Of a DNA stretch of 64,000 bases, positions 2,326 to 21,330 are shown in pieces. This stretch comes from Candidatus Wildermuthbacteria bacterium (GTDB lineage Bacteria > Patescibacteriota > Minisyncoccia > Minisyncoccales > UBA10102): assembly GCA_016181405.1 (NCBI GenBank), contig JACOZJ010000005.1, forward strand, positions 25,309 to 89,308. Reading direction: 5' to 3'. The position numbers and the translations under genes were made by a program. The notes beneath the pieces were generated by a model. It saw only the letters and a program-made list of their open reading frames with translations, was not told the origin of the DNA and ran no database searches. Positions within the stretch are counted from its first letter, which is position 1, and every line of letters begins with the position of its first letter.

Positions 2326-2328
2326 GAT

Positions 2329-3413: not shown

Positions 3414-3426
3414 GCAATTCGCCACC

Positions 3427-3828: not shown

Positions 3829-3835
3829 GAATGTT

Positions 3836-4612: not shown

Positions 4613-4640
4613 TAAGTATGGAATAAGTGAGGTTTATAGG

Positions 4641-4668: not shown

Positions 4669-4675
4669 GAAATAT

Positions 4676-4900
4676 ATGGATCAAGAGAAAGGAGTTACAA
4701 TAGACGATTTGGCTCGGATGGTGCAAAAAGGATTTGAAGAGACTGCAAAGACAAGCGAAGTACGTGTGGAGTTTGACGAAGTTAAGGAGCGGCTCGATCG
4801 CATCGAGAATATTCTGCTTGCAGAGAATCGCCGAAGAATCGAAAAACTTGAAGATCAAATGCGCGAGGTTCGCGATGCACTGGCAATGAACAATAAATAG
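4676..4900 (+). CDS. small coiled-coil protein (paralog of 35157-35279)
   Basis: The ORF track starts at 4667, inside the -10 box, so the ATG at 4676 (MDQEKG...) is more plausible. It shares RRRIEKLEDQ and near-identical DNA with the mini-gene at 35157. Confidence 0.5.
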   Translation: MDQEKGVTIDDLARMVQKGFEETAKTSEVRVEFDEVKERLDRIENILLAENRRRIEKLEDQMREVRDALAMNNK

Positions 4901-4925
4901 AATTTTCCCCTCGTAAACACGATAG

Positions 4926-4950
4926 CTGCGCAAATGCGCAGTTTTGTTTT
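4926..4950 (+). terminator. rho-independent terminator
   Basis: CTGCGCA-AA-TGCGCAG stem-loop followed by TTTTGTTTT. Confidence 0.6.
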
Positions 4951-4976
4951 ACAGAAATATAATGTACATTGGGATT

Positions 4977-8251: not shown

Positions 8252-9198
8252 TGCTGGAGATAGGGAAGATCGCCATTCAAGGTGAACTGAAGATGGTTCC
8301 AGTGGATGACCTCGTCGAGGATGTGCCCGTTGACGGTATCCATGTGGAAAACCTCCGGAAGACTCTCATCACTGATGGGCAGATCAGCCCCTTAGTGGTT
8401 TGGCTGGAACACCATCTGGTCATCGATGGTTTCCATCGTCTTCGTGCCATGAAACTGGCAGGCATCACCGAAGCTCTCTGTCTTCTCTACAGTTGCAGCG
8501 AAGAAACATTTTGGCATCTCCGCATCTTGAATGCGAGAATGCATCGCTCTGTAAGCTTTGCTCGCATTGTAGAATGGGTTCAGAAGAGTTTCCTTATCAC
8601 CCAGTGGGCAGACCGCATGGGGGCAGAGGAAGCGTTTCGCATGGGCCGGCGCGGGGCCGCTCCGAGCGTGGCCTTGACACCAGAAGAGCGCGAGGCACTC
8701 ACCGCATGGGTTCGACAAAAGGCTGCCCAATGGAATCTTGCGCCAGAGCGCGTGAGCGATATGCTGAAAATTAGGAGGTATACTTCGCTCCCGCTCCTGC
8801 GAGAAGTTCGAGATCAATCTACGCCTGGGGCTGTCACGGAGCAAAAGCTTCGCGCCGTAGTAACACGGGTCCGAGAGCCGATGCTCCAGAGCGCCTTGGT
8901 AGAAAAGATTAAGGCAGAACGTCTTTCCCTTCGGGAAGTGGAAGAACTTTCAGCCAAGATCGCAGAGGCAAAGACCGAGGAAGAGAAAGCTCGTCTCTTG
9001 AATGTGGAGGTGGAACGGACGAGACGAGGCTACGTAAATCAGTACAAGGAGGGAAGCATTGAGCACCTTCGCATGCAGGTAGTGGCAAATGCCGCAGAGC
9101 AGATCGCTAACTACCTTCCAAACCTCTCTCCCTCGCCGCTACTCGACGTACAGTTACGGCGGGCACAAGAGGCAATCAACCAGTACTTTGCCAAGTAA
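8251..9198 (+). CDS. ParB-like nuclease domain (ParB N-terminal/sulfiredoxin fold) protein
   Basis: The N-terminus ...ISPLVVWLEHHLVIDGFHRLRAMKLAG... matches the ParBc motif. The start overlaps the upstream stop (TGATG) and follows AAGGAGG. The C-terminus is helical and charged. Confidence 0.6.
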   Translation: MLEIGKIAIQGELKMVPVDDLVEDVPVDGIHVENLRKTLITDGQISPLVVWLEHHLVIDGFHRLRAMKLAGITEALCLLYSCSEETFWHLRILNARMHRSVSFARIVEWVQKSFLITQWADRMGAEEAFRMGRRGAAPSVALTPEEREALTAWVRQKAAQWNLAPERVSDMLKIRRYTSLPLLREVRDQSTPGAVTEQKLRAVVTRVREPMLQSALVEKIKAERLSLREVEELSAKIAEAKTEEEKARLLNVEVERTRRGYVNQYKEGSIEHLRMQVVANAAEQIANYLPNLSPSPLLDVQLRRAQEAINQYFAK

Positions 9199-9225
9199 CG
9201 TGTGGAAGGGATGTGAATGTCCCCG

Positions 9226-9261
9226 GGCGGCACAGAAGTTTTCTGTGCCGCCTTCTTTGTT
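9226..9261 (+). terminator. rho-independent terminator
   Basis: Perfect 12-bp stem GGCGGCACAGAA / TTCTGTGCCGCC, 3-nt loop, then a T-rich tail. Confidence 0.75.
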
Positions 9262-9262
9262 C

Positions 9263-9290
9263 TTGACAACGAAAAAAGAATCAGTATAAT
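9263..9290 (+). promoter_or_regulatory. consensus sigma-70 promoter (TTGACA-16-TATAAT) for rnc
   Basis: TTGACA at 9263-9268 and TATAAT at 9285-9290. An SD (AAGGAG) lies before the ATG at 9332. Confidence 0.55.
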
Positions 9291-9331
9291 GATACAAGTC
9301 TGAACCTTGACATCCAAGAAGGAGTGAAGGA

Positions 9332-10033
9332 ATGGCCGAGTTGAATGAGTTAGAGCAGAGAATTGGGGTTTCTTTCGAAAGGAAAGAACTCCTCCAGCAA
9401 GCACTGACACATCGTTCATACCTCAATGAAGATAGAAGATGGTCAGTTGGTCACAACGAACGACTAGAATTTCTCGGCGACACGGTAGTTGACATGCTGG
9501 TGGCCCACTATCTCTTCCAACACTTTCCAGAAAAGACTGAGGGAATGCTCTCGAGAGCAAAGAGTAACATCGTCAGCAACATAAACCTGGGAAGGGTTGG
9601 GAAGAAGCTTGGCTTACTGGATCATCTCAAGATAGCCCGAGGTACGCGGGCAGAGCCTCGGAATGCGTTGCACCATATCGCATCCTCAACCTATGAAGCT
9701 CTTATCGGGGCTGTGTATCTGGACCGAGGGGTTGAGGCTGCTCGGGGGGTAGTCGAGTCGACACTCTTTGGTACCGAATTGGACGATACCGTAGACCAGC
9801 AGGATCCCAAGGGTCTGCTCCAGCAGCTTACTCAAGCTCAGTGGGGCGTTGCTCCCACATATATTACTATGAAGCTATCAGGAGCTGAACATCGTCCCCG
9901 TTTTGTTGCGCGGGCGTACTTGAAAGGATCTCTTATCGGAGCGGGTGGAGGAACTTCAGAGAAACAGGCAACGGCTGCTGCCGCCCAGGAAGCACTCACC
10001 AATAGAGGTTGGGAACAAAAACTCAGGAGGTAA
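9332..10033 (+). CDS. rnc: ribonuclease III
   Basis: Contains ALTHRSY, the NERLEFLGDTVVDMLVAHYLF catalytic signature, and a C-terminal dsRBD (DPKGLLQQL...GGGTSEKQATAAAAQEAL). Confidence 0.9.
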   Translation: MAELNELEQRIGVSFERKELLQQALTHRSYLNEDRRWSVGHNERLEFLGDTVVDMLVAHYLFQHFPEKTEGMLSRAKSNIVSNINLGRVGKKLGLLDHLKIARGTRAEPRNALHHIASSTYEALIGAVYLDRGVEAARGVVESTLFGTELDDTVDQQDPKGLLQQLTQAQWGVAPTYITMKLSGAEHRPRFVARAYLKGSLIGAGGGTSEKQATAAAAQEALTNRGWEQKLRR

Positions 10034-10036
10034 ATA

Positions 10037-11311
10037 ATGCCAGAATACGAAGATTACCGCGCGCTTTTCCCGGAAAGTGAATATCCAGGACTCAAGGCGC
10101 CAGAGCTCGTTCATGCGGTGATCAGTCGAAAGTTTGGCTGGGCCTTACGGCAAGGGGTTCCTGATGAGGAACTCTTTCAGGAAGGTGTCATTGCCCTTCT
10201 GAACGCGCCGAATTATCCTTCGTTTCCTGCGCCGGAGCGACGAGTCCTCTCCCACTACTGGATGGCTGTGGAGTGGGGGCTTCTTCGCTATCTCCACCAT
10301 GGCGAAGGGAAGGAAGCAGCGTATCGGTACCATGAAATCCCGTTCAGCGAAGCTATTGCAATGATTCTGCCAGAAGGCATCGAGGCCGATGAGCAGGAAG
10401 ACTACCTGGCTTCTCTGGGCGAGCCTCTGTCGGATAGTTGGCGTGAGCCGGAATCCGAGCTAGAGCTCACGGAGCTTATTGATGAGATTATGCGTGTAGC
10501 AAGAACCCATGCCGATACACTCCGATGGGCAAGGGGAAACGAAGGCCAGAAGAAGCTCCGAAAAACCCTTTCCTGGCTAGCCACTGGTTACAACTATACC
10601 GAGGTAGCAGATAAGATCTGGGGAGTAAGCCGGGAACGTGTGCGGCAGTACTTTGGTCAGCTCCGTGCATACCTTGTGGCCGACACATGGTTTATGCTGA
10701 AGTACGGAGAAGAAGTACGGGACAGGCGAGGTACCCCGCGCGCTCGCCGAGATTCCCGGGCAATACTCGAACAAGAAGGTCAGACGGCTGCGCGGATCTC
10801 TCCGCCGAGAGAGAAACGCCGGACTCTCCGTCCTCGAATTCTGATGCCTGCAGCAGAAGAACTGCTTGCTGGCATTGAACGTTCAACGGTTCCCGAGATG
10901 GCTGCGGCCTACGGTATCGATGCCCAGACAATGCGCAACTGGCTTCGGGCAATCGGCGCAGGCCGCGTGTGCCAAAAGTGCGGGGAGACATTCACTGGAC
11001 CTCGCGCAACCACGCGGTACACTGGACATATGGCCTCTCACAGATTTCGGGAACGGCATCCCCAGCGTGCTACTTCCTCAACTACAAGGGAGCAACGGAT
11101 AGCGCCACTCTCAGAGGCAGAACCGATCTGGGAAGTTGCGCTTCAGGCCTTCGAAGGCGAACGTCTGTTGTTGCTTCTGGAGCGAGAAGGAGCTAATGGT
11201 GACAAAGTACTTTTGAGGAGCGTTAAACAGAGAATGGTGCTCCTCGAAGAACGCGAGCACTTCTTGATAAAGGAGGTGTTGGAAAGGGTTGGCGCTCTTC
11301 AGCCAGCTTAG
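10037..11311 (+). CDS. sigma-70-like protein with C-terminal HTH/zinc-ribbon extension
   Basis: LFQEGVIALLNA is region-2-like and YTEVADKIWGVSRERVRQYFGQLRAYL is a region-4-like HTH. Later segments are AAAYGIDAQTMRNWL (second HTH) and CQKCGETF...HMASH. Highly diverged. Confidence 0.45.
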   Translation: MPEYEDYRALFPESEYPGLKAPELVHAVISRKFGWALRQGVPDEELFQEGVIALLNAPNYPSFPAPERRVLSHYWMAVEWGLLRYLHHGEGKEAAYRYHEIPFSEAIAMILPEGIEADEQEDYLASLGEPLSDSWREPESELELTELIDEIMRVARTHADTLRWARGNEGQKKLRKTLSWLATGYNYTEVADKIWGVSRERVRQYFGQLRAYLVADTWFMLKYGEEVRDRRGTPRARRDSRAILEQEGQTAARISPPREKRRTLRPRILMPAAEELLAGIERSTVPEMAAAYGIDAQTMRNWLRAIGAGRVCQKCGETFTGPRATTRYTGHMASHRFRERHPQRATSSTTREQRIAPLSEAEPIWEVALQAFEGERLLLLLEREGANGDKVLLRSVKQRMVLLEEREHFLIKEVLERVGALQPA

Positions 11312-11332
11312 TGCAAGCAACGTACCAATAAG

Positions 11333-11366
11333 GGCCGAGATGGTAACATCTCGGCCTCCTTCTTTT
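11333..11366 (+). terminator. rho-independent terminator
   Basis: GGCCGAGATG-GTAA-CATCTCGGCC followed by TCCTTCTTTT. Confidence 0.7.
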
Positions 11367-11528: not shown

Positions 11529-11567
11529 TGCTTGGCTGTGCTGGGACAGTCCCAGCACAGCCAAGCA
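11529..11567. repeat. perfect 18-bp-arm palindrome at the junction of the two accessory islands
   Basis: TGCTTGGCTGTGCTGGGA-cag-TCCCAGCACAGCCAAGCA, read directly from the sequence. Confidence 0.85.
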
Positions 11568-11696: not shown

Positions 11697-12380
11697 ATGA
11701 ACGAGATTATTTACATCCTCACAAACGAAGCAATGCCCGGATATGTCAAAATCGGGAAAACAGCTAATTCAGTCGAGCAGCGCATACTTGAATTGTCGCG
11801 CTCATCTGCCGTACCGATGCCTTTTGAATGTTACTACGCGGCAAGGGTCAAAGATATGGGCCAAGTAGAAAAGGCATTCCACGACGCCTTCGGCGACTAC
11901 CGAATAAATCCGAGAAGAGAATTTTTTAATGTGGCTCCCGAAAAAGTAGTTGCCATTCTCAAGCTACTCGCATTAGAAGAAGTTACCCCCGGTAGAAATG
12001 TAGGTATTGAGACAAAAGAGGATGCAATTGCTATCGAGAGGGCAAGAAAGAAACGGTCAGCTTTCAATTTTAAAATGGTAGATATCCCAGCCGGAGCGGA
12101 ACTTAAATTTATCCGCGACGAAAAGATCATATGTGTGGTAGCTCCAGACCAGAAACACGTTGTATTCAATGGTCAAGAGATGTCCTCCTCCGAAGCGGCC
12201 GCATTGGCGTTAGGCAGTAAGTGGTGGCCTCAAGGTCCCGGCTACTGGACTTATAATGGGGAAACTTTGGATGATCGTCGTTTGCGCATGGAAGAAGGTG
12301 ATGAACCCACTCCGGAAGAAATAGAAGCGGCCGGAGATGCTTGGATGCAACAGCAAGCTGATATAGAAAGAGGAAAATAA
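11697..12380 (+). CDS. T5orf172 (MUG113)/GIY-YIG-like domain protein with DUF4357-like C-terminus
   Basis: IYILTNEAMPGYVKIGKTANSVEQRILEL...PFECYYA...VEKAFHDAF...REFF matches the T5orf172 pattern. The C-terminus ...SSSEAAALALG...W... resembles DUF4357. Confidence 0.65.
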   Translation: MNEIIYILTNEAMPGYVKIGKTANSVEQRILELSRSSAVPMPFECYYAARVKDMGQVEKAFHDAFGDYRINPRREFFNVAPEKVVAILKLLALEEVTPGRNVGIETKEDAIAIERARKKRSAFNFKMVDIPAGAELKFIRDEKIICVVAPDQKHVVFNGQEMSSSEAAALALGSKWWPQGPGYWTYNGETLDDRRLRMEEGDEPTPEEIEAAGDAWMQQQADIERGK

Positions 12381-12384
12381 TTTT

Positions 12385-12783
12385 ATGGCAATTTTTGAAG
12401 AACTAAAGTCTATTGGAAAGGTACTTCAGGAAGCTGGCAAGATTGAGCAATATCAGCAGATTTTAGGTTTGCAACAGCAGGTTTTGGATATGCAGAAGAA
12501 AATAGATGATCTAGAGACAGAGAAAAAAGAATTGGGGAGCAAGCTTCAACTTCAAAATAGTTTAGTCTATGAAAATAATGCATATTGGATAAAACAAGAA
12601 AATAAAAAAGATGGACCCTTCTGTTCTCGTTGTTGGGACGTGGAGAAGAATGCAGTGAGAATAAAACAGGGAGTCAACAACCCCTCTTTTCACACATGTC
12701 CAGAATGCGAGACACAAGTTCAGACGGATCCTGGTTTTCGCCCTATGTTTACAAGTAGAAAACCACCAATGTCATACCTATAA
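12385..12783 (+). CDS. coiled-coil protein with C-terminal CxxC...CxxC zinc ribbon
   Basis: 132 aa. The N-terminal half has a heptad-like pattern. The C-terminus has CSRCW...CPEC. It starts 4 nt after the upstream stop. Confidence 0.5.
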   Translation: MAIFEELKSIGKVLQEAGKIEQYQQILGLQQQVLDMQKKIDDLETEKKELGSKLQLQNSLVYENNAYWIKQENKKDGPFCSRCWDVEKNAVRIKQGVNNPSFHTCPECETQVQTDPGFRPMFTSRKPPMSYL

Positions 12784-12788
12784 ATTTT

Positions 12789-14492
12789 ATGGCAACAATA
12801 AATTTTAAGGGAAAAGAAATTGTACGAAATCATCACCTCACGATTCCATATCATGAGCTTGTTCCGGATGCGAAAAAGGGGTTATCAAAGAAGCCGTCGC
12901 TCAATGATAACCTCATTATCCACGGCGATAATTTGCTCGCGCTCAAAGCCCTTTTGCCGACTTATGCCGGAAAAGTGAAGCTCAAAGCCCTTTTGCCGAC
13001 TTATGCCGGAAAAGTGAAGTGCATTTACATTGACCCGCCATATAACACCGGCAATGAAAAATGGGCGTATAACGACAATGTTAATTCGCCGATGATGAAG
13101 GAGTGGCTTGGCAAAGTGGTGGACAAAGACGACCTCACCCGCCATGACAAATGACTTTGTATGATGATGCCGCGGTTAAAACTTCTGCGCGAACTTTTAC
13201 GTGATGATGGTGTGATTTTTGTATCAATAAACGACATTGAGCAACACCACTTGCGGTCGTTAATGGACGAAGTTTTCAATGATGGATTCGTTTCTTCAAT
13301 TGTGCGCCAAACCATTAAAGGAGGCACTGGCCCCTCTGACTCAATAAGACTGACACACGATTACATTCTTGTTTATGCAAAAGATAAAGATGTTGCAGAT
13401 CTTTCTGGATTGACGGCAGAAGCTATTGAATTAAATCAGAGGGATGAAAAAGGACTGTATGCAAAGGGAAGAGAACTAAACAAGTGGGGTGCAGGTTCAA
13501 GGAGAGAAGATTCTCCCTCAATGTGGTTTCCGATTCCGGGTCCAAAAAACGAAGAAGTGTATCCGATTCGAAATGATGGCTCGGAAGGTAGGTGGAGGTG
13601 GGGCAAGAAAAGAATGCTCGAAGCTGTTAAGAACAAAGAGGTGATATACGAGAAGCGGAAAGACGGTACGTACATTGTCTATGAGAAAGTCAGAAGTAAT
13701 GATGGACGAAGTAAGTCGTACCAAAGTTTATTTTTGGATAAGTATACCAATGCGTTAGGAACTGAAGAAATAAAGTCAATTTTTGACGGGAAAGCTATTT
13801 TTGATTATCCAAAGCCAACGGAATTAGTAAAAACTCTCTGTAGAATAGCTAGTGTAGGTGAAGGCGATATTGTTTTAGATTCTTTCGCTGGATCAGGTAC
13901 TACAGCACAAGCGGTCTTATCCTTTATTAAGGAGGAGGAAATAAATATTAAATTTATTCTAGTCCAGTTATCAGAAAAAATTGAGGAGGGTAAACCGGCT
14001 TATAAACTTGGATTTCGCGAAGTCGTTGATATCGCAGCCGAGCGAGTGCGACGGGCGATCAAAGGCATGAAAGGCGCAAAAGACGAGAATTTACGAAAAG
14101 GTTTAGGCGGGTCATTCAGTTACTATAAACTTGGCAAGCCGATTGATACTGAAAGGATTTTGAAAGGAAAGGATTTGCCGACATTCGCCGAGATGGCGCG
14201 CTATATTTTCTATACCGCCACCGGCGAAGAATTTAACGAAAAGAAAGTAAACGAAAAAACCGGCTTGATTGGCGTGAGCAAGGAATATCAAATATATCTG
14301 CTCTACAAGCCGGATATGGAATATCTAAAATCCACTGCGCTGACTTTGGAGCGTGCCGAAACCCTTGGCAAATTTACTGGGAAAAAGCGGCTTGTATTCG
14401 CTCCGGCGAAATATCTGGACCAAGAACATCTCCTGCGTTACCACATTGATTTTGCGCAATTGCCCTTTGAGATATATCAAAAAGCGAAATAA
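12789..14492 (+). pseudogene. mod: Type III R-M DNA methyltransferase (Mod), interrupted by an in-frame TGA
   Basis: GDNLLALKALLPTYAGKVKCIYIDPPYNTGNE (motif IV DPPY), then RHDK-TGA-LCMMMPRLKLLRELLRDDGVIFVSIND. The downstream ORF is in the same frame, and FAGSGTTAQA (motif I) is also present. The TGA at 13152-13154 sits where this family has Trp. Confidence 0.8.
12942..13019 (+). repeat. perfect 39-nt tandem duplication inside mod
   Basis: CTCAAAGCCCTTTTGCCGACTTATGCCGGAAAAGTGAAG occurs twice in tandem and duplicates LKALLPTYAGKVK in frame. Confidence 0.95.
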
Positions 14493-14496
14493 TAAC

Positions 14497-15087
14497 ATGA
14501 AAATTTTAATAAATTTTTACGCAAATGTTTCCGAAGGGTCAGTTAATGACTTGATCAAGTTTATTACCATACAACTTGCACAACAAAATCCTCAAAAACC
14601 TATTGACGAGTTGGTAATACAGATATCCAGTTCTGGTGGATCTTCTGACCACGGATTACTTGCATATAATTTTCTTAAGCAAATAAGCATTCCCAAAACA
14701 ACTATTGGTATGGGGAATGTTGATAGCGCAGCGATTATGATTTTTGCCGCAGGAGATAAAAGATTGGCTATGCCAAGCTGTAGATTCGTTTTACACGAGG
14801 CGATAGCTACTTTAGGTGGTCAATTTAGCCCATCAAAACTTAGTGAGATGGCACGTCTAATTCAAAGAATCACTGATGACTATTCAGAAGTAGTCTCAAA
14901 AGTAACAGGGGAAGAGAAAGCAAGTATATCCGAGGAAGTACGCAAGGGTTCCGTTATGTCTTCTTCAGAAGCCTTGGAGTTAAAATTAGTAACCGAGGTA
15001 CTTGATGGTCCCTATCTCAAAGAAATGAAAGATTTGCAAATACTTTTGATTAATAACCCCAAACAAAATCCTAATCAACAGCCATAG
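14497..15087 (+). CDS. ClpP-fold (S14/SDH-like) serine protease homolog
   Basis: 196 aa from the ATG at 14497; the track ORF starts further upstream inside mod. ISSSGGSSDHGLLAYNFL and GMGNVDSAAIMIFAAG align with ClpP INSPGG... and GQAASMGAFLL (Ser). RFVLHEA aligns with ClpP RVMIHQP (His). Confidence 0.65.
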   Translation: MKILINFYANVSEGSVNDLIKFITIQLAQQNPQKPIDELVIQISSSGGSSDHGLLAYNFLKQISIPKTTIGMGNVDSAAIMIFAAGDKRLAMPSCRFVLHEAIATLGGQFSPSKLSEMARLIQRITDDYSEVVSKVTGEEKASISEEVRKGSVMSSSEALELKLVTEVLDGPYLKEMKDLQILLINNPKQNPNQQP

Positions 15088-15116
15088 TTACCACAAAGGA
15101 AGGCTGAGATCTAGCT

Positions 15117-17683
15117 ATGGAATTAAAAGATTTTCAAAAAACATCGCTTGAACGGATTAAAAAATATCTTGAACTTGTCCACAAAGAGCAAGATGGTGGG
15201 AATATAAACTATGCAAGCATTGCTGCATGGGACAGTTTGAAATCAAGTTTTAACTTAGCCAATGCTTATCAAAAACGAGAAAACGGTCTAAGTAAAGATG
15301 TGCCGAATTTTGTCTTGAAGATACCAACCGGCGGCGGAAAAACATTTTTGGCCGTCAAAACACTTGATGTTATCAACGAAGTTTTTCGCAAAAAGCGAAC
15401 GGGACTTGTTTTGTGGGTAGTGCCGACAACATCAATTTATCGGCAGACCGTGCGCGCCCTGAAGGATAGAAACCATCCCTATCGCCAACATCTTGATATG
15501 GTAAGCGGCGGAAAGACTTTGATTCTGGAAAAATATCAAGGCAAAATTGACCGCTTTACCCCGCTTGATGTGGAAGAAAATTTGGTGGTGTATGTGCTTA
15601 TGTTGCAATCGGCGGCGCGCAATGAGCTGTTGCAAAAGGACTTGCGCATTTTTGCCGATAGCGGAGGATTTACGGAATTTTTCCCGCCGGAAGATCGGCT
15701 TGACCAGCACGAAAAATTGATGGAAAAATATCCAAATTTGGAAACATTCAATGAAGCCGGCGGTATTTGGAAAAGGCAGATAAAAACATCGCTTGGCAAT
15801 TCCTTGCGATTACTTAGCCCCGTGGTGATTTTGGATGAAAGCCAAAAGGCATATTCCGCAAACGCGCAAAGAACTATTTTCGGATTTAATCCATCGGTTG
15901 TTATTGAACTTTCCGCAACTCCATCGGAGGGAAGTAATGTCTTGGTGAATATTACCGGAAGGCAGGTGAACGATGAGGAAATGATCAAGCTTGACCTTCA
16001 TGTTACGCGCAAAGGAAGTTTGGCATGGAAAGATACTTTGTGGGCAAGCGTGAAAAAACGAGAGGAATTGGAAAAAGAAGCCGTCAAGAACGAACAAAAT
16101 ACCGGAATGTATATTCGGCCGATTTGTCTGGTGCGCACGGAGCGGGTTGGCAGAGAACAGCAGGGGCGGGGTTTTATCCACTCTAACGACGTGCGAAATG
16201 AATTGATTAACGGTGGAATACCGGCTGAATATATCGCTATAAAAACGAGTGAAGAAGATGAGCTTAAAGAAATAGACGACATTGGCGGATTGATGTCGAG
16301 AGATTGTCCGGTGCGCTACATCATTACCAAACAAGCGTTGCAGGAGGGTTGGGATTGCGCGTTTGCCTATGTGCTTGCCGTGCTTGATAAAACGCACTCA
16401 AAAACCGCATTAACGCAACTTGTCGGACGAATACTGCGCCAGCCATACGCGAAAAAGACCGGCGTAACATTACTCAATGAGAGTTACGTTTATGCTTTTC
16501 GAGAAGAGGCAAGCGATCTACTGGAAGGGATAAGGAAAGCGTTTGAGGGCGAAGGACTTGGTGATTTGCGCACGCACATCTCGGCTGATGAGGGGTTAGA
16601 CGGGTACAAAAAGGATTTTGAGCTAAAAGAGTACACGGTTCGCAAACGATTTGAAAAAGTGGCTGAACAAATAATTCTTCCGTTTTTTTCTATCAATGAT
16701 CGCGGCAAATGGCGCAAGGTAAGTTATGAAATGGATATTTTAAGAAGGATAGATTGGGACGCCATCAAGTTAGACGCTGTTTATTCCATGTCTTTGACTG
16801 GGCGGGCAGTTCGCGATGACGAGTATGTCGCCCAACTATCCGATGATGTGCGCGAGGTAATAAAAGGGAAAAGGGTGGCACAAAAAGAATCCGGCGGAAT
16901 TGTCATTGATAGCATTTTCATGGCCCAACAATTAGGCGATGTCGTTCCAAATCCGTGGCAGGCATTTCGTTTTGCCGAGATGATTCTATCGGAAATGACA
17001 ACACGCCATAGGATTGAGCTTGTGAGCGAAAACTTCTCTTTTATTATTGAAGAAGCTAAGCGTATCATTTCTGAACAGAGAGACGCATTGGCAGAAAACT
17101 TCTTTAGTGAATTGCTTGGTCAAGGCAAAATTCGCTTTATGGTGGTGAGTAGAGATATTGGATTCAGGTTACCTAAAAAGATCAGTGTGCCGGCAAACAC
17201 AGAGTACTTGCGCCGTCCCGACGGAAGTCCGATGCAAATGAGTTTGTTTGAGTTTGTAGCGAAGGATATGTTCAATGAGGAACTGGAAAAACCGGTAGCG
17301 TATTTTTTGGATGACCAAAGTCGGTTATTTTTTTGGTATCGCAACGAAGTAAAACACGATAACGATTATGGTATTCAGGCATGGAAGAAAGGAAAGATAT
17401 ATCCGGATTTCATTTTCACTGTGACGGATGAAAAAACAAGGATAAGGTGAATAAGGTTTATATTGTAGAGACGAAGGGCGATCAACTGGTTGGAAACCTC
17501 GATACAAAATACAAGGAGTCGGTGTTTGATGTATGTAATCGCTATGCAAAGAAAATGCCGACAGACGCGCTAGATTTGGCCATGAAAGAACGTGAAATTG
17601 AATATGAGGTTATTTATGGAAGGGACTGGGAAAAGAAGTTGAGTGAGTTATTTGCGGAGAAAAATGAGCAGCGCGCTAGATAA
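15117..17683 (+). pseudogene. res: Type III restriction enzyme Res subunit (SF2 helicase + PD-(D/E)XK nuclease), frameshifted
   Basis: PTGGGKT (motif I), ILDESQ (motif II) and QALQEGWDC / GRILRQP (late motifs). The nuclease motif is split: YPDFIF ends ORF1 (15117-17450) and VYIVETKG opens ORF2 (17447-17683) in another frame. An A6 run lies at 17431-17436. Confidence 0.8.
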
Positions 17684-17685: not shown

Positions 17686-17880
17686 TTGGCACAAAGCGAT
17701 GTTTTTGAGGCCAGGAAAATTGTCCTTAATTTCACGCCGATTGAGACGCAAAAGGAAATTGTTGAAAAACTGAACGCGGCGCAGGAATACAAAAAAGGCC
17801 TGTTGGAACAAAAAGCAAAACTCCAGGAACTCTTTGACGGCGTTTTATATCGTTCAATGACCGGAGAATTCGATCAATAA
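17686..17880 (+). pseudogene. remnant of a Type I specificity subunit (HsdS) C-terminal conserved region
   Basis: Only 64 aa. ...IETQKEIVEKLNAAQEYKKGLLEQKAKLQELFDGVLYRSMTGEF resembles the HsdS conserved helical spacer/tail. No TRD is present. Confidence 0.5.
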
Positions 17881-18090
17881 AAACCATGCTCGATCCTTTA
17901 CCGATACTTAATAGTTTCTTCTCAGCTCTTTATCAGGGAATCCTAAAGGGGCTTGAGATACTTTTTAGTTTTTTGATCGATAAAATTTTTTAAGAATAAA
18001 ACTCTATGATACAGACGGCGATGGTTACGATAGGAGTTGTGCTGGTGGCGGGGAGTCGCCGACAAGGCGACTTTTTGGTAAAGTAGGCCT

Positions 18091-19104
18091 ATGCAAGATC
18101 AAGATAAAAAGATATACGGCGTATTCGAGGGTGGGGGAGTGAAAGGCACGGGATTGGTAGGCGCCGTGGAAGTAACAGAGCAACAGGGGTATGAATTCCG
18201 CAATGTGGCGGGGACTTCAGCGGGCGCCATTGTGGCTTCGTTCGTGGCCGCGGGCTACAGTTCTGCTGAAATGAAAGAAATTATGTTTGCTTTGGACTAC
18301 CGGCGTTTTCAGGACGGCGGTTTTTTGAACAATATTCCCTTGTTGGGTAAACCTTTGAGCTTGTTGCTGCATAAAGGAATATATAAGGGTGACTATTTTG
18401 AGCGTTGGATACGCGATTTATTATTGCGAAAGAATATCCGTACGTTTGGGGATTTGGTGCTTCCGGAAGCGGAAATTGCTCCCCGATGGCGTTACCGCCT
18501 GCAGGTGGTTGCCTCTGATATTAGCAGAGGCAAACTTATTGTTTTGCCATGGGACGCGCTCGATTATGGCATAGCGCCAGATGAGCTTGATGTGGCGCGG
18601 GCAGTCAGGATGAGCATGAGCATTCCATATTTTTACAATCCCGTGGTCATGAAAGATACGCAACAGCACCCTGCTTATTTGGTGGATGGGGGAGTCTTAA
18701 GCAACTATCCGGTTCGGCTGTTTGATCCCGAAAGCGACAACACCACGCCCGTATGGCCAACATTCGGATATAAATTGGTGGAGCCAGACGAGGGGAAGCC
18801 CCGAGTCATTCGAGGCCCAATCAGCCTCTTGACCGCGCTATTCTCAACCATGATGGAAGCGCACGACGCGCGGTATATTAAAGACGCGAACTTTATGCGC
18901 ACCATACCCATTGAAACGCTCGGTATTCAAACCACGCAGTTTGATATGACGACGCAGCAAAAACAAGATTTGTACGACAGCGGGAAAAAAGCCGCCACGG
19001 AATTTTTCGCCACCTGGAGTTTTGAAGAATACGTTCAAAAAAATCTGAAAGAAGAACACCGAAGCAAAAAAGTGTGGAGAAAAGAAGCGGCATTTGAGGT
19101 TTGA
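18091..19104 (+). CDS. patatin-like phospholipase
   Basis: Contains GVFEGGGVKG (oxyanion GGGxxG), AGTSAGA (GxSxG nucleophile) and VDGGVLSNYP (DGG catalytic Asp). Confidence 0.9.
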   Translation: MQDQDKKIYGVFEGGGVKGTGLVGAVEVTEQQGYEFRNVAGTSAGAIVASFVAAGYSSAEMKEIMFALDYRRFQDGGFLNNIPLLGKPLSLLLHKGIYKGDYFERWIRDLLLRKNIRTFGDLVLPEAEIAPRWRYRLQVVASDISRGKLIVLPWDALDYGIAPDELDVARAVRMSMSIPYFYNPVVMKDTQQHPAYLVDGGVLSNYPVRLFDPESDNTTPVWPTFGYKLVEPDEGKPRVIRGPISLLTALFSTMMEAHDARYIKDANFMRTIPIETLGIQTTQFDMTTQQKQDLYDSGKKAATEFFATWSFEEYVQKNLKEEHRSKKVWRKEAAFEV

Positions 19105-19135
19105 CTCGCTGGGTGTCTAGGTGTACACTGGAGAC
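19101..19135 (+). promoter_or_regulatory. promoter (TTGACT-17-TACACT) overlapped by an imperfect palindrome (GTCTagGTGTACACtggAGAC), a likely TA operator
   Basis: The palindrome centre GTGTACAC is perfect. The ATG at 19138 follows almost immediately. Confidence 0.4.
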
Positions 19136-19137
19136 GT

Positions 19138-19353
19138 ATGGCTACCTCAATTTCAACAAAAACAAGCTCGGTGAAACAGCTTCAAAGAGAAGTAGAGCTG
19201 CTCCGCTCTTTTGTGATCGGCCAAACAGGAAGGGATCCAGAGGGTGAATACAGGCCAGAGTTTGTAAAAAAAATACTCAAGGCGGCACAGGAACCTCCCG
19301 CGTATGAGTTTACAGATGCCGATTCTTTTTTGAAACATATCCGCGGCAAATAG
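19138..19353 (+). CDS. putative antitoxin of the downstream RelE/ParE-family toxin
   Basis: 71 aa, 6 nt upstream of the toxin gene in the classical antitoxin-toxin order. I did not recognise the family. Confidence 0.45.
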   Translation: MATSISTKTSSVKQLQREVELLRSFVIGQTGRDPEGEYRPEFVKKILKAAQEPPAYEFTDADSFLKHIRGK

Positions 19354-19359
19354 TGAGCT

Positions 19360-19623
19360 ATGGTAAGAGTGTACTACAGCGGCCGCTTCAGGAAGAGCGT
19401 GAAACGCTTGAATGAAAAACAGCAAGCCCAGTTAGCACGGCTTGTTGTTTTGTTGAAAGAGAATCCGTTTGACTCGTTGCTCCATACGAAGTCCCTATCG
19501 GGGCGGCTTGCCGGCATTTATTCGTTTCGCATTACTAGAGAATATCGGGTGCTTTTCAGGTTTTTGTCTCCCGATGAAATTCTCCTTATCGACGTGGGAG
19601 GCCGAAAAGATATTTACCGGTAA
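19360..19623 (+). CDS. type II toxin, RelE/ParE (plasmid stabilisation) superfamily
   Basis: 87 aa. ...FRKSVKRL...LKENPF...[38 protein letters not shown] is the typical pattern. Confidence 0.75.
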
Positions 19624-19640: not shown

Positions 19641-19715
19641 ATGTCTTTATCCGTCGGAATTGTTGGGTTGCCGAATGTGGGGAAATCCACGCTGTTTCAG
19701 GCGCTTACGAAAAAG
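19641..19715 (+). pseudogene. ychF: 5' fragment of ychF (Obg-like ATPase) carrying the P-loop
   Basis: [25 protein letters not shown] is the YchF N-terminus with the G1 motif. Homology is then lost and the frame stops at 19772. Confidence 0.8.
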
Positions 19716-19768: not shown

Positions 19769-19993
19769 ATGAAAGAGATTGCTCCGCAAGTTACAACCGA
19801 CGAAAAAACGCAATTTGGCAAACCCGTGATTGCCGGCACAAGAGTGCCGGTAGAGGTTGTTATTGGCCATATCGCCACGGGAGACGCCATTGAAACAGTG
19901 ATGAAAGAATACGGACTGACCCGAGAACAGGTTTTGGCTGCTTTGAAATATGCCGCAAAACTTGTTGGCGAAGAAATGCTCATAGCCAAATAA
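19769..19993 (+). CDS. DUF433 domain protein (putative antitoxin)
   Basis: 74 aa. [47 protein letters not shown] matches the DUF433 pattern. It overlaps the next gene by 1 nt (TAATG). Confidence 0.7.
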
Positions 19994-20358
19994 TGCTTTT
20001 TCTTATTGATGAAAACACCACATCTTCAATAAGGACTTTATTTGAAGAAAAGGGATTCGCGGCAGAATGTGTGAAAGATATACACGAACTTCGCGGCCAA
20101 CCCGACGAAGTCGTTTTTGATTACGCAGTCGCCAAGCAAGCCGTTATTGTTACAAAAGATCTCGGATTCGCCAATCCGATTAGATTCCCATTATCTCAAC
20201 TGATCGGTTTGGTTGTTTTACGATTTCCAAATGAAATTTCGGTGACTATCCTGTATAAAGAAGTTGAAAGGCTGATTGAAGGAATGGAGGAACAAGACTT
20301 CCGTAAGCGAATAATTGTAATTGAGCCGGGCAGTGTCCGTTCACGCCGTCTCCCATAA
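19993..20358 (+). CDS. DUF5615 (PIN-like/Mut7-C-like) protein (putative toxin)
   Basis: 121 aa. [22 protein letters not shown]...DEVVFDYAVAKQAVIVTKDLGFAN is typical of DUF5615 partners of DUF433. Confidence 0.65.
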   Translation: MLFLIDENTTSSIRTLFEEKGFAAECVKDIHELRGQPDEVVFDYAVAKQAVIVTKDLGFANPIRFPLSQLIGLVVLRFPNEISVTILYKEVERLIEGMEEQDFRKRIIVIEPGSVRSRRLP

Positions 20359-20368: not shown

Positions 20369-21330
20369 ATGTCTGCACTATCCGTCGGAATTGTGGGGAA
20401 GTTCCCGATGAGCGGCTGCAAAAGCTTGCTGATTTTTTCCAGTCCAAGAAAGTCATCCCCACGATTATTGAGTTTGTGGATATCGCGGGCCTGGTGCGCG
20501 GGGCAAACAAGGGCGAAGGTTTGGGCAATCAGTTTTTGGCGAACATACGCGAGGTGGACGCCATTGTGCAGGTGGTACGCTGTTTTGAAAACGCGAATAT
20601 ATCGCATGTGGATGAAACGATAGATCCTTTGCGCGATATGGAAACGGTCCAGACAGAATTGATTCTGAAAGATTTAGAAACTCTGCAAAAACGACTGGCA
20701 AGCGTTGAGAAAGAAGCGCGGGCGCAAAACAAAGAGGCAACGGCGCGGCAAACCGTGTTGCAAGGGCTTCTGCGGAGCATGAATCAGGGGGTTCCGGCGT
20801 TTCAGTTCGTAAAAGAAAATCCCGACAGCGCAGAAACAATACACGAATTGTTTCTTCTTTCCGCGAAGCCAACCCTTTATTTATTGAACGCCGATACGGA
20901 AAAAGAGGCGGCTGGAGCGATTTCATACGCAAAAAAGCTCGGAGCGCCCTACGCGGTAATGAATATTAAAGAAGAAGAGGAGAAAGTGGGGCTTTCGCCA
21001 GAGGAGCTTCGCGAATTGGATTTGTCTGCGCCGCGACTCCCCGAACTCATCACAAAAGCATATGAAGCGCTTGGCTTGATTACATTTTTTACCACCGGAC
21101 CCGATGAAACTCGAGCGTGGACCGTGCGATGCGGCGCCAAAGCGCCGGATGCCGGCGGCGCGATACACAGCGACTTTAAAGAGAAGTTTATCCGGGCGGC
21201 CGTGATTCAATGGGATACATTGCTTAAGGCCGGCGGCACGGCAGAGGCCATGGCGCAAGGGCTTATTCGTACGGAAGGCAAAGAATACGTTGTGAAAGAT
21301 GGAGATGTCATAGAGATCAAGCATGGATAA
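20369..21330 (+). pseudogene. ychF: ychF body lacking the P-loop, with a frameshifted duplicated start
   Basis: ATGTCTGCACTATCCGTCGGAATTGTGGGG repeats the 19641 start. The YchF-homologous frame (EVPDERLQKLADFFQ...IIEFVDIAGLVRGANKGEGLGNQFL...C-terminal TGS-like GKEYVVKDGDVIEIKH) differs from that ATG frame, and about 35 residues including GLPNVGKST are absent. Confidence 0.8.

Follow-up and report, generated by a model that had tools for sequence, protein, structure and literature searches.

The locus described here raises the question of why a gene for a ClpP-like protease should lie between the mod and res genes of a Type III restriction-modification (RM) system. It is part of a 64,000-nucleotide stretch of a Candidatus Wildermuthbacteria (CPR) contig, which we call the window, and consists of five co-directional ORFs in a low-GC island (GC of 0.40 to 0.42, versus 0.49 to 0.55 in the flanks). 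All five are present on the + strand where the initial annotation had placed them: a T5orf172 (GIY-YIG-like) gene (11697 to 12380); a gene for a coiled-coil protein with a CxxC...CxxC Zn ribbon (ZnCC; 12385 to 12783); a Type III mod pseudogene (12789 to 14492, split into 12789 to 13154 and 13161 to 14492); the gene for the ClpP-like serine peptidase, here named ClpPl (14497 to 15114, with the present open frame stopping at 15087); and a Type III res pseudogene (15117 to 17683, split into 15117 to 17450 and 17447 to 17683) for an SF2 helicase with a C-terminal PD...ExK nuclease. A perfect 19-bp terminator-like hairpin just 5' of the operon (11529 to 11567, + strand) and a second hairpin upstream (11332 to 11357) likely form the 5' boundary of the transcription unit. 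Downstream of res, a 64-amino-acid ORF (17686 to 17880, + strand) resembles the C-terminal helix of Type I HsdS (PADLOC Specificity_I, a weak match at 5.8e-4) and is probably a remnant; it has a counterpart downstream of res (7623 to 7754) in L009, the closest relative of this locus.

The assignments of the genes around ClpPl are borne out by profile matches: T5orf172 matches PF10544 (3.3e-18) and PADLOC PDC-S57 (4.6e-71), Mod matches PADLOC MTase_III (1e-73 and 1e-51), and Res matches PADLOC REase_III (9e-151) and the ResIII profile (1.6e-12). The window Res is collinear with the intact 847-amino-acid Res of L009, to which it is 93% identical. The five genes had been regarded as one unit, which is not conserved; the core that is kept consists of the M gene(s), the ClpP-like gene, and the R gene. 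Among the loci examined, the T5orf172 gene, the first of the operon and a member of a PADLOC family of single-gene defence candidates, is common only to the window and L009 (54% identity). ZnCC, which has no match in Pfam, PDB, or Foldseek searches, has more than 213 homologue clusters and recurs at the head of RM-type operons of CPR bacteria (it is the leader in L040/41, L047, and L048/49); it is a separate, widespread leader gene of such operons. In the window, clpPl occupies the middle of a low-GC Type III cassette that was acquired horizontally and has the order Zn-ribbon leader, mod, clpPl, res.

The 196-amino-acid ORF was proposed to be a ClpP-fold protease, and its match to PF00574 (E = 2e-23, 83.7 bits against a cut-off of 20.2) places it in the ClpP family, with no match to the SDH_sah profile and no significant match to Peptidase_S49 (E = 0.084); of the ClpP/S14/S49 families, it is therefore PF00574 that is matched significantly. 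When a ClpPl profile is compared with the PDB, the best matches are all ClpP, down to 9e-20. The AlphaFold2 model, including the long handle helix, has a pLDDT of 91.3, and Foldseek aligns it with ClpP at TM scores of 0.75 to 0.83. The residue matches that had been made by eye are correct: SSSGG corresponds to the oxyanion Gly motif NSPGG of ClpP, NVDSAA corresponds to QAASMG (Ser77 is ClpP Ser97), and RFVLHEA corresponds to RVMIHQP (His100 is ClpP His122). The third catalytic residue, which was not obvious in the initial annotation, is truly missing, since the position of ClpP Asp171 is occupied by Gly151. Across 33 ClpPl sequences, S77, H100, and G48 are invariant, and position 151 carries Gly in 30 sequences and Ser in the other 3. 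The ClpPl proteins form a small family of serine peptidases with the ClpP fold, and the family is strongly conserved.

Compared with ClpP (MEROPS S14, PF00574), ClpPl has the same fold with its handle helix, has its Ser nucleophile, general-base His, and oxyanion Gly at equivalent positions, and is 22 to 26% identical to solved ClpPs. In contrast, it is missing an N-terminal stretch of ~20 residues that in mature ClpP forms the axial loops and helix A; positions 1 to 21 of the PF00574 profile are unmatched, and the protein begins at strand beta-1. These elements gate the ClpP pore and are where ClpX or ClpA is engaged. ClpPl also differs in having invariant residues of its own (D51, H52, and D76) and a C terminus that is extended by ~35 residues and closes with a clade-specific [KR]x[AS]E[IV] motif, and it scores far below every NCBIfam ClpP cut-off (80.6 versus 228). 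Neither clpX nor any other AAA+ unfoldase gene adjoins ClpPl in any locus examined. The activity and oligomeric state of ClpPl are uncertain, because both the catalytic Asp and the adjacent Glu/Arg or Asp/Arg ring-ring sensor of ClpP are not conserved. A precedent for a ClpP fold without the catalytic Asp exists in triad-deficient paralogues such as Listeria monocytogenes ClpP1, and PDB 4jcr ("ClpP1 N165D mutant") is among the best ClpPl matches. ClpP1 is inactive alone and active within a ClpP1/2 heterocomplex; it differs from ClpPl in retaining its N-terminal region and in working with a second ClpP and ClpX, whereas ClpPl has no linked second ClpP gene.

Comparison with L009 located the lesions that had been reported for mod and res, which are a nonsense codon and a frameshift, respectively. 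In mod, TGA at 13152 to 13154 (+ strand) replaces the TGG (Trp, ...RHDKWLCMMMP...) of L009; recoding of this codon is unlikely, because TGA serves as a normal stop here and ends 11 of 49 long ORFs. The gene also contains an in-frame tandem duplication of 2 x 39 nt (13 codons; 12941 to 13018, + strand) that is not found in L009, and its DNA-recognition region (~13196 to 14075) has diverged from that of L009. In res, a 1-nt deletion in an A-rich stretch (~17430 to 17437, + strand) causes a -1 frameshift that divides the PD...ExK nuclease motif (YPDF / IVETKG). The list of lesions was incomplete, however, in that a premature stop in clpPl had been missed. Relative to L009, a 9-nt insertion near the 3' end of this gene (~15082 to 15093, + strand; its exact ends are ambiguous because of a CCA repeat) brings in a TAG at 15085 to 15087, so the clpPl gene is damaged as well. 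The ancestral stop is the TAG at 15112 to 15114, 2 nt ahead of the res ATG, an arrangement shared with the 97%-identical L009 locus, and the ancestral frame encodes the conserved C-terminal tail (...QRKAEI). The intergenic gaps of 4, 5, 4, and 29 nt are as originally measured, but that of 29 nt is an artefact of the insertion. The dN/dS values against L009 are 0.037 for ClpPl and 0.082 for Res, and the cassette was under strong purifying selection until recently. With disabling lesions in mod, clpPl, and res, it is probably non-functional here.

The arrangement itself is not peculiar to this contig. In a survey of ~31 informative homologous loci, the order mod, ClpP-like, res was found in ~10 other distinct loci, which makes 11 in all (the window, L009, L002, L003, L005, L011, L037, L031, L036, L039, and L040), with two unrelated Res families. 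The association is not limited to Type III systems. ClpPl lies between hsdS and hsdR of Type I systems in three loci (L008, L024, and L027) and beside Type II enzymes or lone methylases in five, namely MTase-CfrBI-ClpPl (L025), MTase-MutH-like-ClpPl (L034), lexA-EcoRII-Dcm-Vsr-ClpPl (L045), DpnI-like-ClpPl (L023), and Dam-ClpPl (L016); with Type II R/M pairs it is directly 3' of the pair. Thus, an RM gene is directly in the ClpPl operon in 19 of 31 loci, always co-directional and separated from its neighbours by -4 to +10 nt, and in the annotated gene tables every MTase or REase domain is at most three genes from ClpPl. About a third of the loci (~10/31) have no RM neighbour, and ClpPl is found there with, e.g., DnaK, Obg, a GDSL lipase, or a permease. 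lexA adjoins ClpPl in three distinct loci (L001/L010, L035, and L045/46), and L007 and L034 have a DinB-family gene close by.

In the ClpPl tree, these neighbourhood types are interleaved. The Res of the window and L009 has only helicase motif VI and the nuclease motif in common with the L003-type Res, while the ClpPl proteins of the two groups are 75 to 78% identical, which indicates that recruitment into RM operons happened repeatedly. The family is small, with ~95 clusters at 90% identity in 5.8 billion proteins and 19 clusters at 50% identity with E < 1e-30, and all homologues recovered are from CPR/Patescibacteria of several classes. No family member was found in viral and plasmid collections; in 2.9 million viral contigs, the sole match is 21% identical. 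Serine recombinases adjoin L005 and L038. Some ClpPl proteins are nearly identical between CPR classes, which suggests that the gene moved horizontally along with the islands. An outgroup relative, P0113, adjoins a ribonucleotide reductase gene. We found no description of the mod, ClpP-like, res arrangement in the searchable literature, and this protease-restriction partnership in the CPR is apparently undescribed.

The initial suggestion of protease-coupled restriction or abortive infection is a hypothesis. Our preferred but tentative reading (probability of roughly 0.3), which is drawn by analogy with ClpXP restriction alleviation, is that ClpPl exerts proteolytic control of restriction. ClpPl would be a self-contained control module that travels with mobile RM cassettes and is produced in fixed proportion to the restriction subunit. 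It could remove restriction complexes, or unfolded or stalled forms of them, when host sites are unprotected, and so curb damage to the host's own DNA; this would count when a cassette enters a naive cell or when DNA has been damaged. Given the lexA and dinB neighbourhoods, free-standing copies would belong to the DNA-damage response. Against this reading, the R partners are unrelated (HsdR, two Res families, and CfrBI-like, MutH-like, EcoRII-like, and DpnI-like enzymes), while ClpPl itself remains 46 to 97% identical. It is thus unlikely that ClpPl recognizes each R protein specifically, and some generic signal would have to be involved. In addition, a ClpP-type chamber normally requires an unfoldase to degrade folded proteins, and ClpPl has no linked one. 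The ~10 of 31 loci without an RM neighbour also count against control of restriction, and the window copy is itself shortened. Sister CPR loci carry stand-alone defence genes in this slot between M and R, namely SoFic (2e-103), Old (2e-64), PDC-S13 (9e-113), and DUF3800, and an embedded independent defence gene fits this pattern as well as coupling does.

Such an independent role, in which ClpPl would target phage products (e.g., degrade small anti-restriction proteins or peptides, or disturb capsid maturation) and the RM operon would be a favoured parking slot for co-transferred, co-expressed defence genes, is in our view unlikely. It accounts for the occupants of the sister slots, for the stand-alone candidate PDC-S57 at the start of the window operon, and for the sporadic and mobile nature of the family, and a single target for all RM types would explain a conserved ClpPl with varying partners. 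ClpPl is also distantly similar to the ClpP-related phage head-maturation proteases (PHROG 94, 1684, and others, 3e-16; NF045542, 1.4e-12), which share its fold and are likewise short ClpP-like proteins acting without an unfoldase. It differs from these proteases in that no member of its family was found in the viral contigs and no capsid genes are near it. Against an independent role, ClpPl scores far below the NF045542 cut-off (47.8 versus 120), and it has no PADLOC match and no known phage target. Several solo copies are in plainly housekeeping surroundings, and to our knowledge the linkage to RM operons (19/31) is far tighter than ordinary defence-island clustering. Another reading is that ClpPl has no defence function and is a CPR-specific SOS or proteostasis protease, once in a lexA operon, whose gene was surrounded by inserting RM cassettes or picked up by them by chance. 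In E. coli, UmuD' and the fragments of cleaved LexA are degraded by ClpXP, and ClpPl might similarly clear LexA fragments, a TLS polymerase, or damaged proteins. In L035, lexA and ClpPl are co-directional with a 16-nt gap in housekeeping surroundings, in L045 the Type II cassette sits between lexA and ClpPl, other neighbours include DnaK, Obg, YchF, and NUDIX genes, and the outgroup P0113 is next to ribonucleotide reductase. We nevertheless consider this non-defence role improbable: a housekeeping gene is not expected to come to lie again and again between mod and res or between hsdS and hsdR, its stop and start codons overlapping those of its neighbours, in Type I systems and with two unrelated Res families; the family is much too scarce and scattered to be a core CPR gene, and its near-identical members in different classes point to transfer with islands.

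It is somewhat doubtful, too, that ClpPl is a toxic protease which the co-expressed RM complex keeps latent until a phage anti-restriction factor disables the RM enzyme and frees the protease to degrade host or phage proteins indiscriminately, which would abort infection. ADEP-activated and N-terminally truncated ClpP are toxic, and ClpPl without an N-terminal gate would resemble such an opened, deregulated ClpP, with the missing Asp possibly keeping it latent until triggered. The breakage of mod, clpPl, and res together in the window is consistent with this guard role, as is the Type I order hsdM-...-hsdS-ClpPl-hsdR, which is the order of prrC in the EcoprrI locus; EcoprrI keeps PrrC latent, and a T4 inhibitor of EcoprrI activates it (PMC1484252; PMC3458546). 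In contrast, intact, strongly conserved ClpPl occurs alone beside housekeeping genes in about a third of the loci and beside an apparently split hsdR in L008, and so is not obviously toxic without an RM partner. Masking would also have to work with many unrelated RM enzymes although ClpPl hardly varies, and the lexA linkage would be unexplained. Nutrient acquisition has been put forward as a role of restriction enzymes and proteases in a recent preprint on methyltransferases of the CPR (bioRxiv 10.64898/2026.07.13.738296). That the restriction nuclease and ClpPl digest phage DNA and proteins to feed a host unable to make nucleotides or amino acids is very improbable, with nothing specific in its favour for ClpPl and with the operon-internal position, the lexA linkage, and the scarcity of ClpPl among CPR genomes left unexplained.

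The initial annotation named BrxL of BREX as the nearest analogy. BrxL resembles ClpPl in having a protease-family annotation within a methylation-based defence operon, but it is a large AAA+ protein that is neither a homologue of ClpP nor a demonstrated protease, and BREX falls outside the classical RM systems. The Lon-like C-terminal domain of BrxL resembles RadA as much as Lon, and the protein forms rings around DNA (PMC12707154). PrrC in EcoprrI and ClpXP alleviation are closer. Like PrrC in the Type Ic EcoprrI locus and the rlo ("restriction-linked ORFs") of Campylobacter Type I loci, ClpPl is the product of an extra, co-expressed non-RM gene between hsdS and hsdR. PrrC is an ABC-ATPase/tRNA nuclease, however, not a protease, without homology to ClpPl, and is limited to Type I loci, whereas ClpPl also occurs with Types II and III and alone; prrC is described as always linked to RM loci (PMC3458546). 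In E. coli, host ClpXP degrades the HsdR of Type IA and IB enzymes (EcoKI and EcoAI) and so prevents self-restriction, which ties a ClpP-family peptidase functionally to a restriction subunit and to both DNA damage and the establishment of RM systems in a new host (PMC4231737; PMC12707154). That protease is a housekeeping enzyme of the host that depends on ClpX as its unfoldase and attacks HsdR only while it translocates, whereas the ClpPl gene is within the RM operon without a linked unfoldase, and its activity on R subunits is putative. Finally, ClpXP alleviation is known only for Type IA and IB enzymes, whereas ClpPl accompanies Type I, II, and III systems.

The five open reading frames of the cassette run head to tail on the plus strand, and the gaps of 4, 5, 4, and 29 nt given in the initial annotation are borne out by the open reading frame list. 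The first gene (positions 11697 to 12380) encodes a T5orf172 protein (PF10544, 3.3e-18) that matches the PADLOC family PDC-S57 over its whole length (4.6e-71). It is followed by a gene (12385 to 12783) for a 132-amino-acid protein, here called ZnCC, in which a conserved helix at the N terminus and a long coiled coil are combined with a CxxC...CxxC zinc ribbon, and by a Type III mod gene that is split into two frames (12789 to 13154 and 13161 to 14492; PADLOC MTase_III, 1e-73 and 1e-51; PF01555). The ClpP-like gene, clpPl, has its current open frame at 14497 to 15087, and the last gene is a split Type III res (15117 to 17450 and 17447 to 17683; REase_III, 9e-151; PF04851) with an SF2 helicase and a PD...ExK nuclease. 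Pfam, PADLOC, and sequence features thus uphold the earlier family calls for T5orf172, the Zn-ribbon protein, Mod, and Res. Mod belongs to the N6/N4 methyltransferase class, although its gene is interrupted by a TGA at 13152, and Res has all its domains, although its nuclease motif is frameshifted. In Type III systems mod is normally followed directly by res in one operon, whereas here clpPl lies between them.

Two strong hairpins lie in the 385-nt gap before the operon, one GC-rich (11332 to 11357) and the other formed by perfect 19-bp inverted arms around a 1-nt loop (11529 to 11567); they could serve as terminators for the gene upstream or be an element at the island boundary. A hairpin search of the window found no comparable terminator within the five-gene block. 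The G+C content drops to 0.40 to 0.42 across the block, compared with 0.49 to 0.55 on both flanks, as expected for a horizontally acquired island. Downstream of res, the stretch from 17686 to 19623 holds a 64-amino-acid remnant resembling the C terminus of HsdS, also present in the closest relative of the cassette (locus L009), a patatin-like phospholipase (PF01734, 1e-31) with a weak match to PADLOC phospholipase effectors, and a DUF2683/ParE-YoeB-like pair. These elements and the T5orf172 gene form a compact defense island. Beyond them, the ychF GTPase gene of the window appears to be split, with residues 1 to 25 at 19641 to 19715 (92% identical to YchF of locus L023), residues 46 to 364 in a different frame at 20401 to 21321, and a DUF433/DUF5615 (PIN-like) toxin-antitoxin-type pair between the two pieces (19780 to 20358). 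In L023 the clpPl island likewise lies just upstream of ychF.

Locus L009, from a groundwater metagenome contig, has the same gene order, mod-clpPl-res, with an intact Mod of 541 amino acids, a ClpPl of 202 amino acids that is 97% identical to that of the window, and an intact Res of 847 amino acids (93% identical). Relative to L009, and on the plus strand throughout, the window mod carries a TGG-to-TGA nonsense change (13152 to 13154, in ...RHDK-W-LCMMMP...) and an in-frame 39-nt tandem duplication (12941 to 13018), clpPl carries a 9-nt insertion that creates a TAG (15085 to 15087), and res has lost 1 nt in an A-rich stretch (about 17430 to 17437). This −1 frameshift cuts the PD...ExK nuclease motif, the sole C-terminal segment conserved between Res families, into a YPDF half and an IVETKG half. 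The lesions in mod and res that had been reported earlier, with the caveat that this copy may be decaying, are borne out by the comparison with L009, but the premature stop in clpPl itself had been overlooked. The ancestral clpPl frame runs on to a TAG at 15112 to 15114 and still spells ...LPQRKAEI, so that the [KR]x[AS]E[IV] C terminus conserved in this clade is retained in the old frame. The ancestral stop lies 2 nt before the res ATG, matching L009; the odd 29-nt gap between clpPl and res is thus a consequence of the insertion. Recoding of TGA as tryptophan in mod was rejected, since 11 of 49 long open reading frames in this genome terminate normally at TGA and L009 has TGG at the corresponding position.

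Between the window and L009, dN/dS is 0.037 for clpPl (dS 0.39) and 0.082 for res, which argues that the cassette was under strong purifying selection for most of its divergence and that its decay is recent; alternatively, the lesions represent a minority or assembly variant. Whatever the role of the family, the ClpPl of the window is in all likelihood a relic that no longer functions. The middle of mod, presumed to be the DNA-recognition domain (window, 13196 to 14075; L009, 3180 to 4023), gives no alignment at the DNA level, and Mod is only 57% identical overall, whereas the cassettes are otherwise 89 to 93% identical. This indicates that closely related cassettes have swapped sequence specificity.

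We collected approximately 50 homologous or related loci by genome and metagenome scans and by exact-protein look-ups and compared them by open reading frame maps, clustering, and Pfam/PADLOC annotation; approximately 31 of these are distinct, informative clpPl loci and form the basis of the tallies. A tblastn search of the first eight homologous loci, with the window Mod and Res as queries, gave no match. Open reading frame maps and Pfam show that the mod/res or hsd genes of those eight loci belong to other families that have diverged strongly, so the empty search was a false negative caused by Mod/Res divergence. In 11 loci (the window, L009, L002, L003, L005, L011, L037, L031, L036, L039, and L040) clpPl lies between a Type III mod and res on the same strand. 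The order mod-clpPl-res is thus found in about 10 related loci, sometimes with one or two further genes in between, and is not unique to this contig. The central claim of the initial annotation, that a ClpP-like gene is conserved between mod and res, consequently holds, and the neighborhood survey that it had proposed also yielded an intact version, L009.

The association extends beyond Type III systems. Three loci (L008, L024, and L027) have the Type I order hsdM-x-hsdS-clpPl-hsdR, and five have Type II enzymes or lone methylases: methyltransferase-CfrBI-like-clpPl in L025, methyltransferase-MutH-like-clpPl in L034, lexA-EcoRII-like-Dcm-Vsr-clpPl in L045 (a Type II cassette between lexA and clpPl), DpnI-like-clpPl in L023, and Dam-like-clpPl in L016. 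In one locus (L001/L010) an Eco57I-type methylase, lexA, and an HNH gene are near clpPl, and in another (L035) clpPl directly follows lexA. In about 10 of the 31 informative loci there is no restriction-modification (RM) gene within three genes of clpPl, and the neighbors are DnaK, Obg, a GDSL lipase, a permease, and others. Methylase and endonuclease domains in the annotated gene tables are never more than three genes away from clpPl, which argues that the adjacency is not a background property of these genomes. In L008, the hsdR next to clpPl is split (276 plus 719 amino acids, 7809 to 10795), which adds a second locus where the restriction gene is damaged and the adjacent clpPl is intact; L027 has a single 1,017-amino-acid open reading frame (1779 to 4832).

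Junctions around clpPl within operons are typically −4 to +10 nt, and clpPl is co-oriented with restriction subunits of many unrelated kinds, with which it is probably cotranslated. Genomic contexts are interleaved on the ClpPl tree. The Res proteins of the window and L009 are essentially unrelated to those of L002, L003, and L005 beyond two short motifs, and the ClpPl proteins of the same loci are 75 to 78% identical. Based on the interleaved contexts, the unrelated Res proteins, and the similar ClpPl proteins, we conclude that ClpPl has been combined with different RM systems repeatedly.

ClpPl has the fold of ClpP but is not a canonical ClpP. The PF00574 profile search suggested for 14497 to 15087 gave a significant match (2e-23; 83.7 bits against a gathering score of 20.2), and a profile built from 23 family members retrieved only ClpP chains from the PDB (best, 9e-20). 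An AlphaFold2 model (pLDDT 91.3, pTM 0.87), which includes a long "handle" helix at 112 to 137, superimposes in Foldseek on ClpP of many species with TM scores of 0.75 to 0.83 at 19 to 26% identity. Both the fold and the profile match therefore place it with peptidase S14. The searches suggested against the two other families gave an insignificant match to Peptidase_S49 (E = 0.084, below the cut-off) and none to SDH_sah (PF01972), and membership in either was rejected. The ClpP motifs that had been matched by eye are confirmed by alignment: Ser77, His100, and Gly48, which align with the ClpP nucleophile Ser97, His122, and oxyanion Gly68, are invariant in 33 full-length family members. The remark that the catalytic Asp was not obvious was also correct, as the position of ClpP Asp171 is Gly151 in ClpPl (Gly in 30 of 33 sequences, Ser in 3), and the full Ser-His-Asp triad is missing. 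A catalytic set of at most a Ser-His dyad, or one with an alternative third residue, is possible. ClpPl is a conserved and probably active Ser/His peptidase of the ClpP fold.

Other features of canonical ClpP are missing as well. The chamber of canonical ClpP is a double heptamer (tetradecamer), and the Asp(Glu)/Arg sensor of ring-ring contact beside ClpP Asp171 is not conserved in ClpPl. Every homologue starts with MK[ILA]L, at ClpP strand beta-1; positions 1 to 21 of the PF00574 profile are unmatched, and about 37 residues of what we take to be the E. coli ClpP precursor sequence have no counterpart. From this start it follows that ClpPl lacks the N-terminal region that docks ClpX, ClpA, or ClpC, with the axial loops through which ClpP gates its pore and signals to ClpX or ClpA. 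Near the active site ClpPl has invariant residues of its own: D51-H52, which follows the oxyanion glycines, and D76, which precedes the serine. Its C terminus is extended by about 35 residues. The idea that the tail motif tracks RM type was rejected, as the motif instead follows ClpPl phylogeny. All NCBIfam ClpP models, among the orthologue models that include TIGR00493 and PRK00277, score far below cut-off (best, 80.6 bits against 228; TIGR00493, 55.8 against 308.6). Canonical ClpP acts together with an AAA+ unfoldase whose gene is often close by (clpP-clpX). A ClpX-like or other unfoldase gene or a canonical ClpP gene was not found by tblastn or in gene tables in the window or the approximately 50 fetched loci. 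None of the 5,027 models of PADLOC-DB 2.0 gave a defense match to ClpPl; the sole hit, to CARF_HEPN at 0.0019, was spurious and had no stretch that passed.

The family is small: clustered at 90% identity, it amounts to 95 clusters in a collection of 5.8 billion proteins, and an exhaustive HMM search gave 19 clusters at 50% identity (E < 1e-30). Members are annotated from Parcubacteria groups, WWE3, Peregrinibacteria/Peribacteria, and Saccharibacteria, among the lineages of the CPR (Patescibacteria). The exact ClpPl protein of the window is annotated from a Candidatus Wildermuthbacteria MAG, which places the window in a CPR genome. The family is absent from the viral contigs of IMG/VR, where there is a single match at 21% identity, and PLSDB contains no plasmid-borne relatives at 1e-8. 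A phage head-maturation protease was rejected as its identity (NF045542, 47.8 against a cut-off of 120, and no capsid genes in any locus), and a phage origin was rejected on the basis of the sub-cut-off head-protease scores and the single IMG/VR match.

Some neighbors of clpPl point to DNA damage. In three distinct loci (L035, 5310 to 6621; L045/L046, 522 to 3921; and L001/L010, in L010 at 3516 to 5534) clpPl is directly downstream of, or divergent from, lexA, and in two loci DinB-family polymerase genes are nearby (L007, 7468 to 8718; L034, 10190 to 11473). These neighbors suggest a link of ClpPl to the DNA-damage response. A 213-amino-acid open reading frame of L007 was considered as a further LexA and rejected because it does not cluster with verified LexA proteins; the lexA linkage thus rests on three loci. 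The intergenic regions beside lexA and clpPl contain no consistent LexA-box motif of the Cheo-box or E. coli palindrome type. One more distant relative, outside the family, adjoins a ribonucleotide reductase gene. Also in L007, a tRNA-like sequence recognized by eye (about 9460 to 9540) lies between the upstream genes and the block of clpPl and an AAA_15-AAA_21 ATPase gene, which suggests that this block entered as an island by integration at a tRNA gene.

The five-gene unit as a whole, in contrast to the core arrangement, is not conserved. T5orf172 recurs only in L009 (54% identity), where the next gene encodes a different, 209-amino-acid membrane protein, and ZnCC belongs to a large separate family of more than 213 clusters. 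ZnCC (window, 12385 to 12783; L040, 2766 to 3161; L047, 4995 to 5399; L048/L049, 5001 to 5399; L026, 2967 to 3356) is strongly conserved in the N terminus MAIFDELKS.GKVLQEAGKIEQYQQIL and a DGPFCSRCWD...CPEC ribbon, and is a recurrent first gene of RM-type operons, both Type III and SNF2-helicase/N6-methylase systems. The operons read ZnCC-mod-72aa-117aa-clpPl-res in L040/L041, ZnCC-mod-mod'-Old-res in L047, and ZnCC-SNF2 helicase-N6 methylases in L048/L049. ZnCC matches no Pfam, NCBIfam, or PADLOC family, and profile searches of the PDB and Foldseek searches with an AlphaFold2 model found only insignificant coiled-coil/Zn-ribbon matches. ZnCC may be an undescribed RM regulator, controller, or adaptor.

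The slot between modification and restriction genes is shared with other genes, various of them established or candidate single-gene defenses: SoFic in L039 (3021 to 4202; 2e-103), an Old-family nuclease in L047 (7603 to 9219; 2e-64), PDC-S13 between hsdM and hsdS in L008 (5099 to 5944; 9e-113), a DUF3800 protein in L005 (9149 to 9913), and a 424-amino-acid protein of no assigned family in L037 (6617 to 7891). In sister loci the slot also holds a family of small membrane/coiled-coil proteins. These proteins, of 98 to 121 amino acids with one transmembrane segment and a coiled coil, are encoded directly upstream of clpPl in three Type III loci (L002, 9652 to 10017; L040, 5644 to 5997; L039, 1946 to 2242) and are missing from the window; they could be a partner or adaptor of ClpPl. 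The slot in CPR Type III and Type I operons appears to be a parking place, with the operons carrying embedded defense cargo.

Our most far-reaching interpretation, to which we assign a probability of roughly 0.45, is that a ClpP-family protease that needs no unfoldase is an integral part, the fourth, of RM cassettes of the CPR, in Type I, II, and III systems alike. It would either degrade restriction complexes, giving the cassette its own means of alleviation and establishment, or be a PrrC-like guard. Of the specific roles we tentatively favor restriction alleviation in cis, by analogy with E. coli, in which host ClpXP degrades HsdR of Type IA and IB enzymes when DNA is unprotected and a cell lacking ClpXP acquires new Type I systems only with difficulty (PMC4231737; PMC12707154). 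ClpPl would act as a proteolytic brake: whenever the host DNA lacks protection, it would clear restriction complexes or forms of them that have stalled or unfolded. A mobile cassette with its own protease would be independent of the proteases of its recipient. The lexA and dinB neighborhoods would fit a DNA-damage-linked role. The evidence for alleviation of the ClpXP type is genomic linkage only, to restriction genes, lexA, and dinB. Against it stand the lack of a linked unfoldase, the missing catalytic Asp, the great diversity of the restriction partners, and a precedent limited to Type I systems. The near constancy of ClpPl beside unrelated RM partners makes specific recognition of each enzyme improbable, and ClpPl probably does not recognize them individually.

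It is doubtful that ClpPl is instead a guard that is masked by the RM system and fires when restriction is blocked. Such a role would parallel PrrC, whose gene occupies the same position in the EcoprrI locus and which is unleashed by a phage anti-restriction peptide (PMC1484252; PMC3458546). Solo, intact clpPl genes speak against an RM-masked toxin; since intact copies persist without RM, ClpPl is probably not intrinsically toxic. The use of the same slot by SoFic and Old is consistent with an autonomous defense or counter-counter-defense gene that merely occupies the slot, a role that we consider improbable. Equally improbable is an SOS or proteostasis protease hitch-hiking in RM operons, which fits poorly with the rarity of ClpPl and with its operon-internal position in unrelated systems. 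Nutrient scavenging by restriction plus protease, an idea taken from a preprint (bioRxiv 10.64898/2026.07.13.738296), is hardly credible.

Should restriction alleviation in cis be correct, ClpPl would be the first cis-encoded proteolytic controller of restriction and a portable solution to the acquisition problem across three major RM types. RM systems are the commonest bacterial defense, and to our knowledge their host-safe acquisition is understood only for Type II (C proteins) and, among Type I systems, for a few of E. coli (through host ClpXP or control by subunit assembly). If ClpPl is a guard or effector, the PrrC principle of a second-line weapon in an RM operon would reach a protease and Types II and III. 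Either role, if true, would be a protease-coupled form of restriction-modification hitherto undescribed. ClpPl would in addition be a new gate-less, Asp-less ClpP branch with a defined biological context, and it would give a handle on the defense biology of these ultra-small bacteria, in which we know of very few systems. The lead merits experiments on intact cassettes, for which L009 (Ga0326597_10022599), L003 (PFAH01000005.1), and the complete WWE3 genome CP006914.1 (about 227 to 233 kb) are suited.

RM operons with embedded extra genes are known, examples being PrrC and the rlo genes of Campylobacter. A search of the full-text literature, subscription-only papers aside, turned up no account of a ClpP-family gene that recurs inside RM operons of Types I, II, and III, in agreement with the earlier statement that no canonical Type III system is known to have a peptidase between mod and res. 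The analogy drawn earlier with the Lon-like BrxL of BREX is not established, as ClpPl is unrelated to BrxL. With ClpP, ClpPl shares the superfamily fold and profile, but without the full triad, the N-terminal gate, or the scores of curated orthologues. With PrrC it shares a position inside the RM operon, between specificity or modification genes and restriction genes (hsdS-clpPl-hsdR in L008, L024, and L027, and mod-clpPl-res), but whereas PrrC is always linked to a silencing RM locus, ClpPl is RM-free in about 10 of 31 loci. In ClpXP-dependent restriction alleviation, proteolytic control of restriction is already known.
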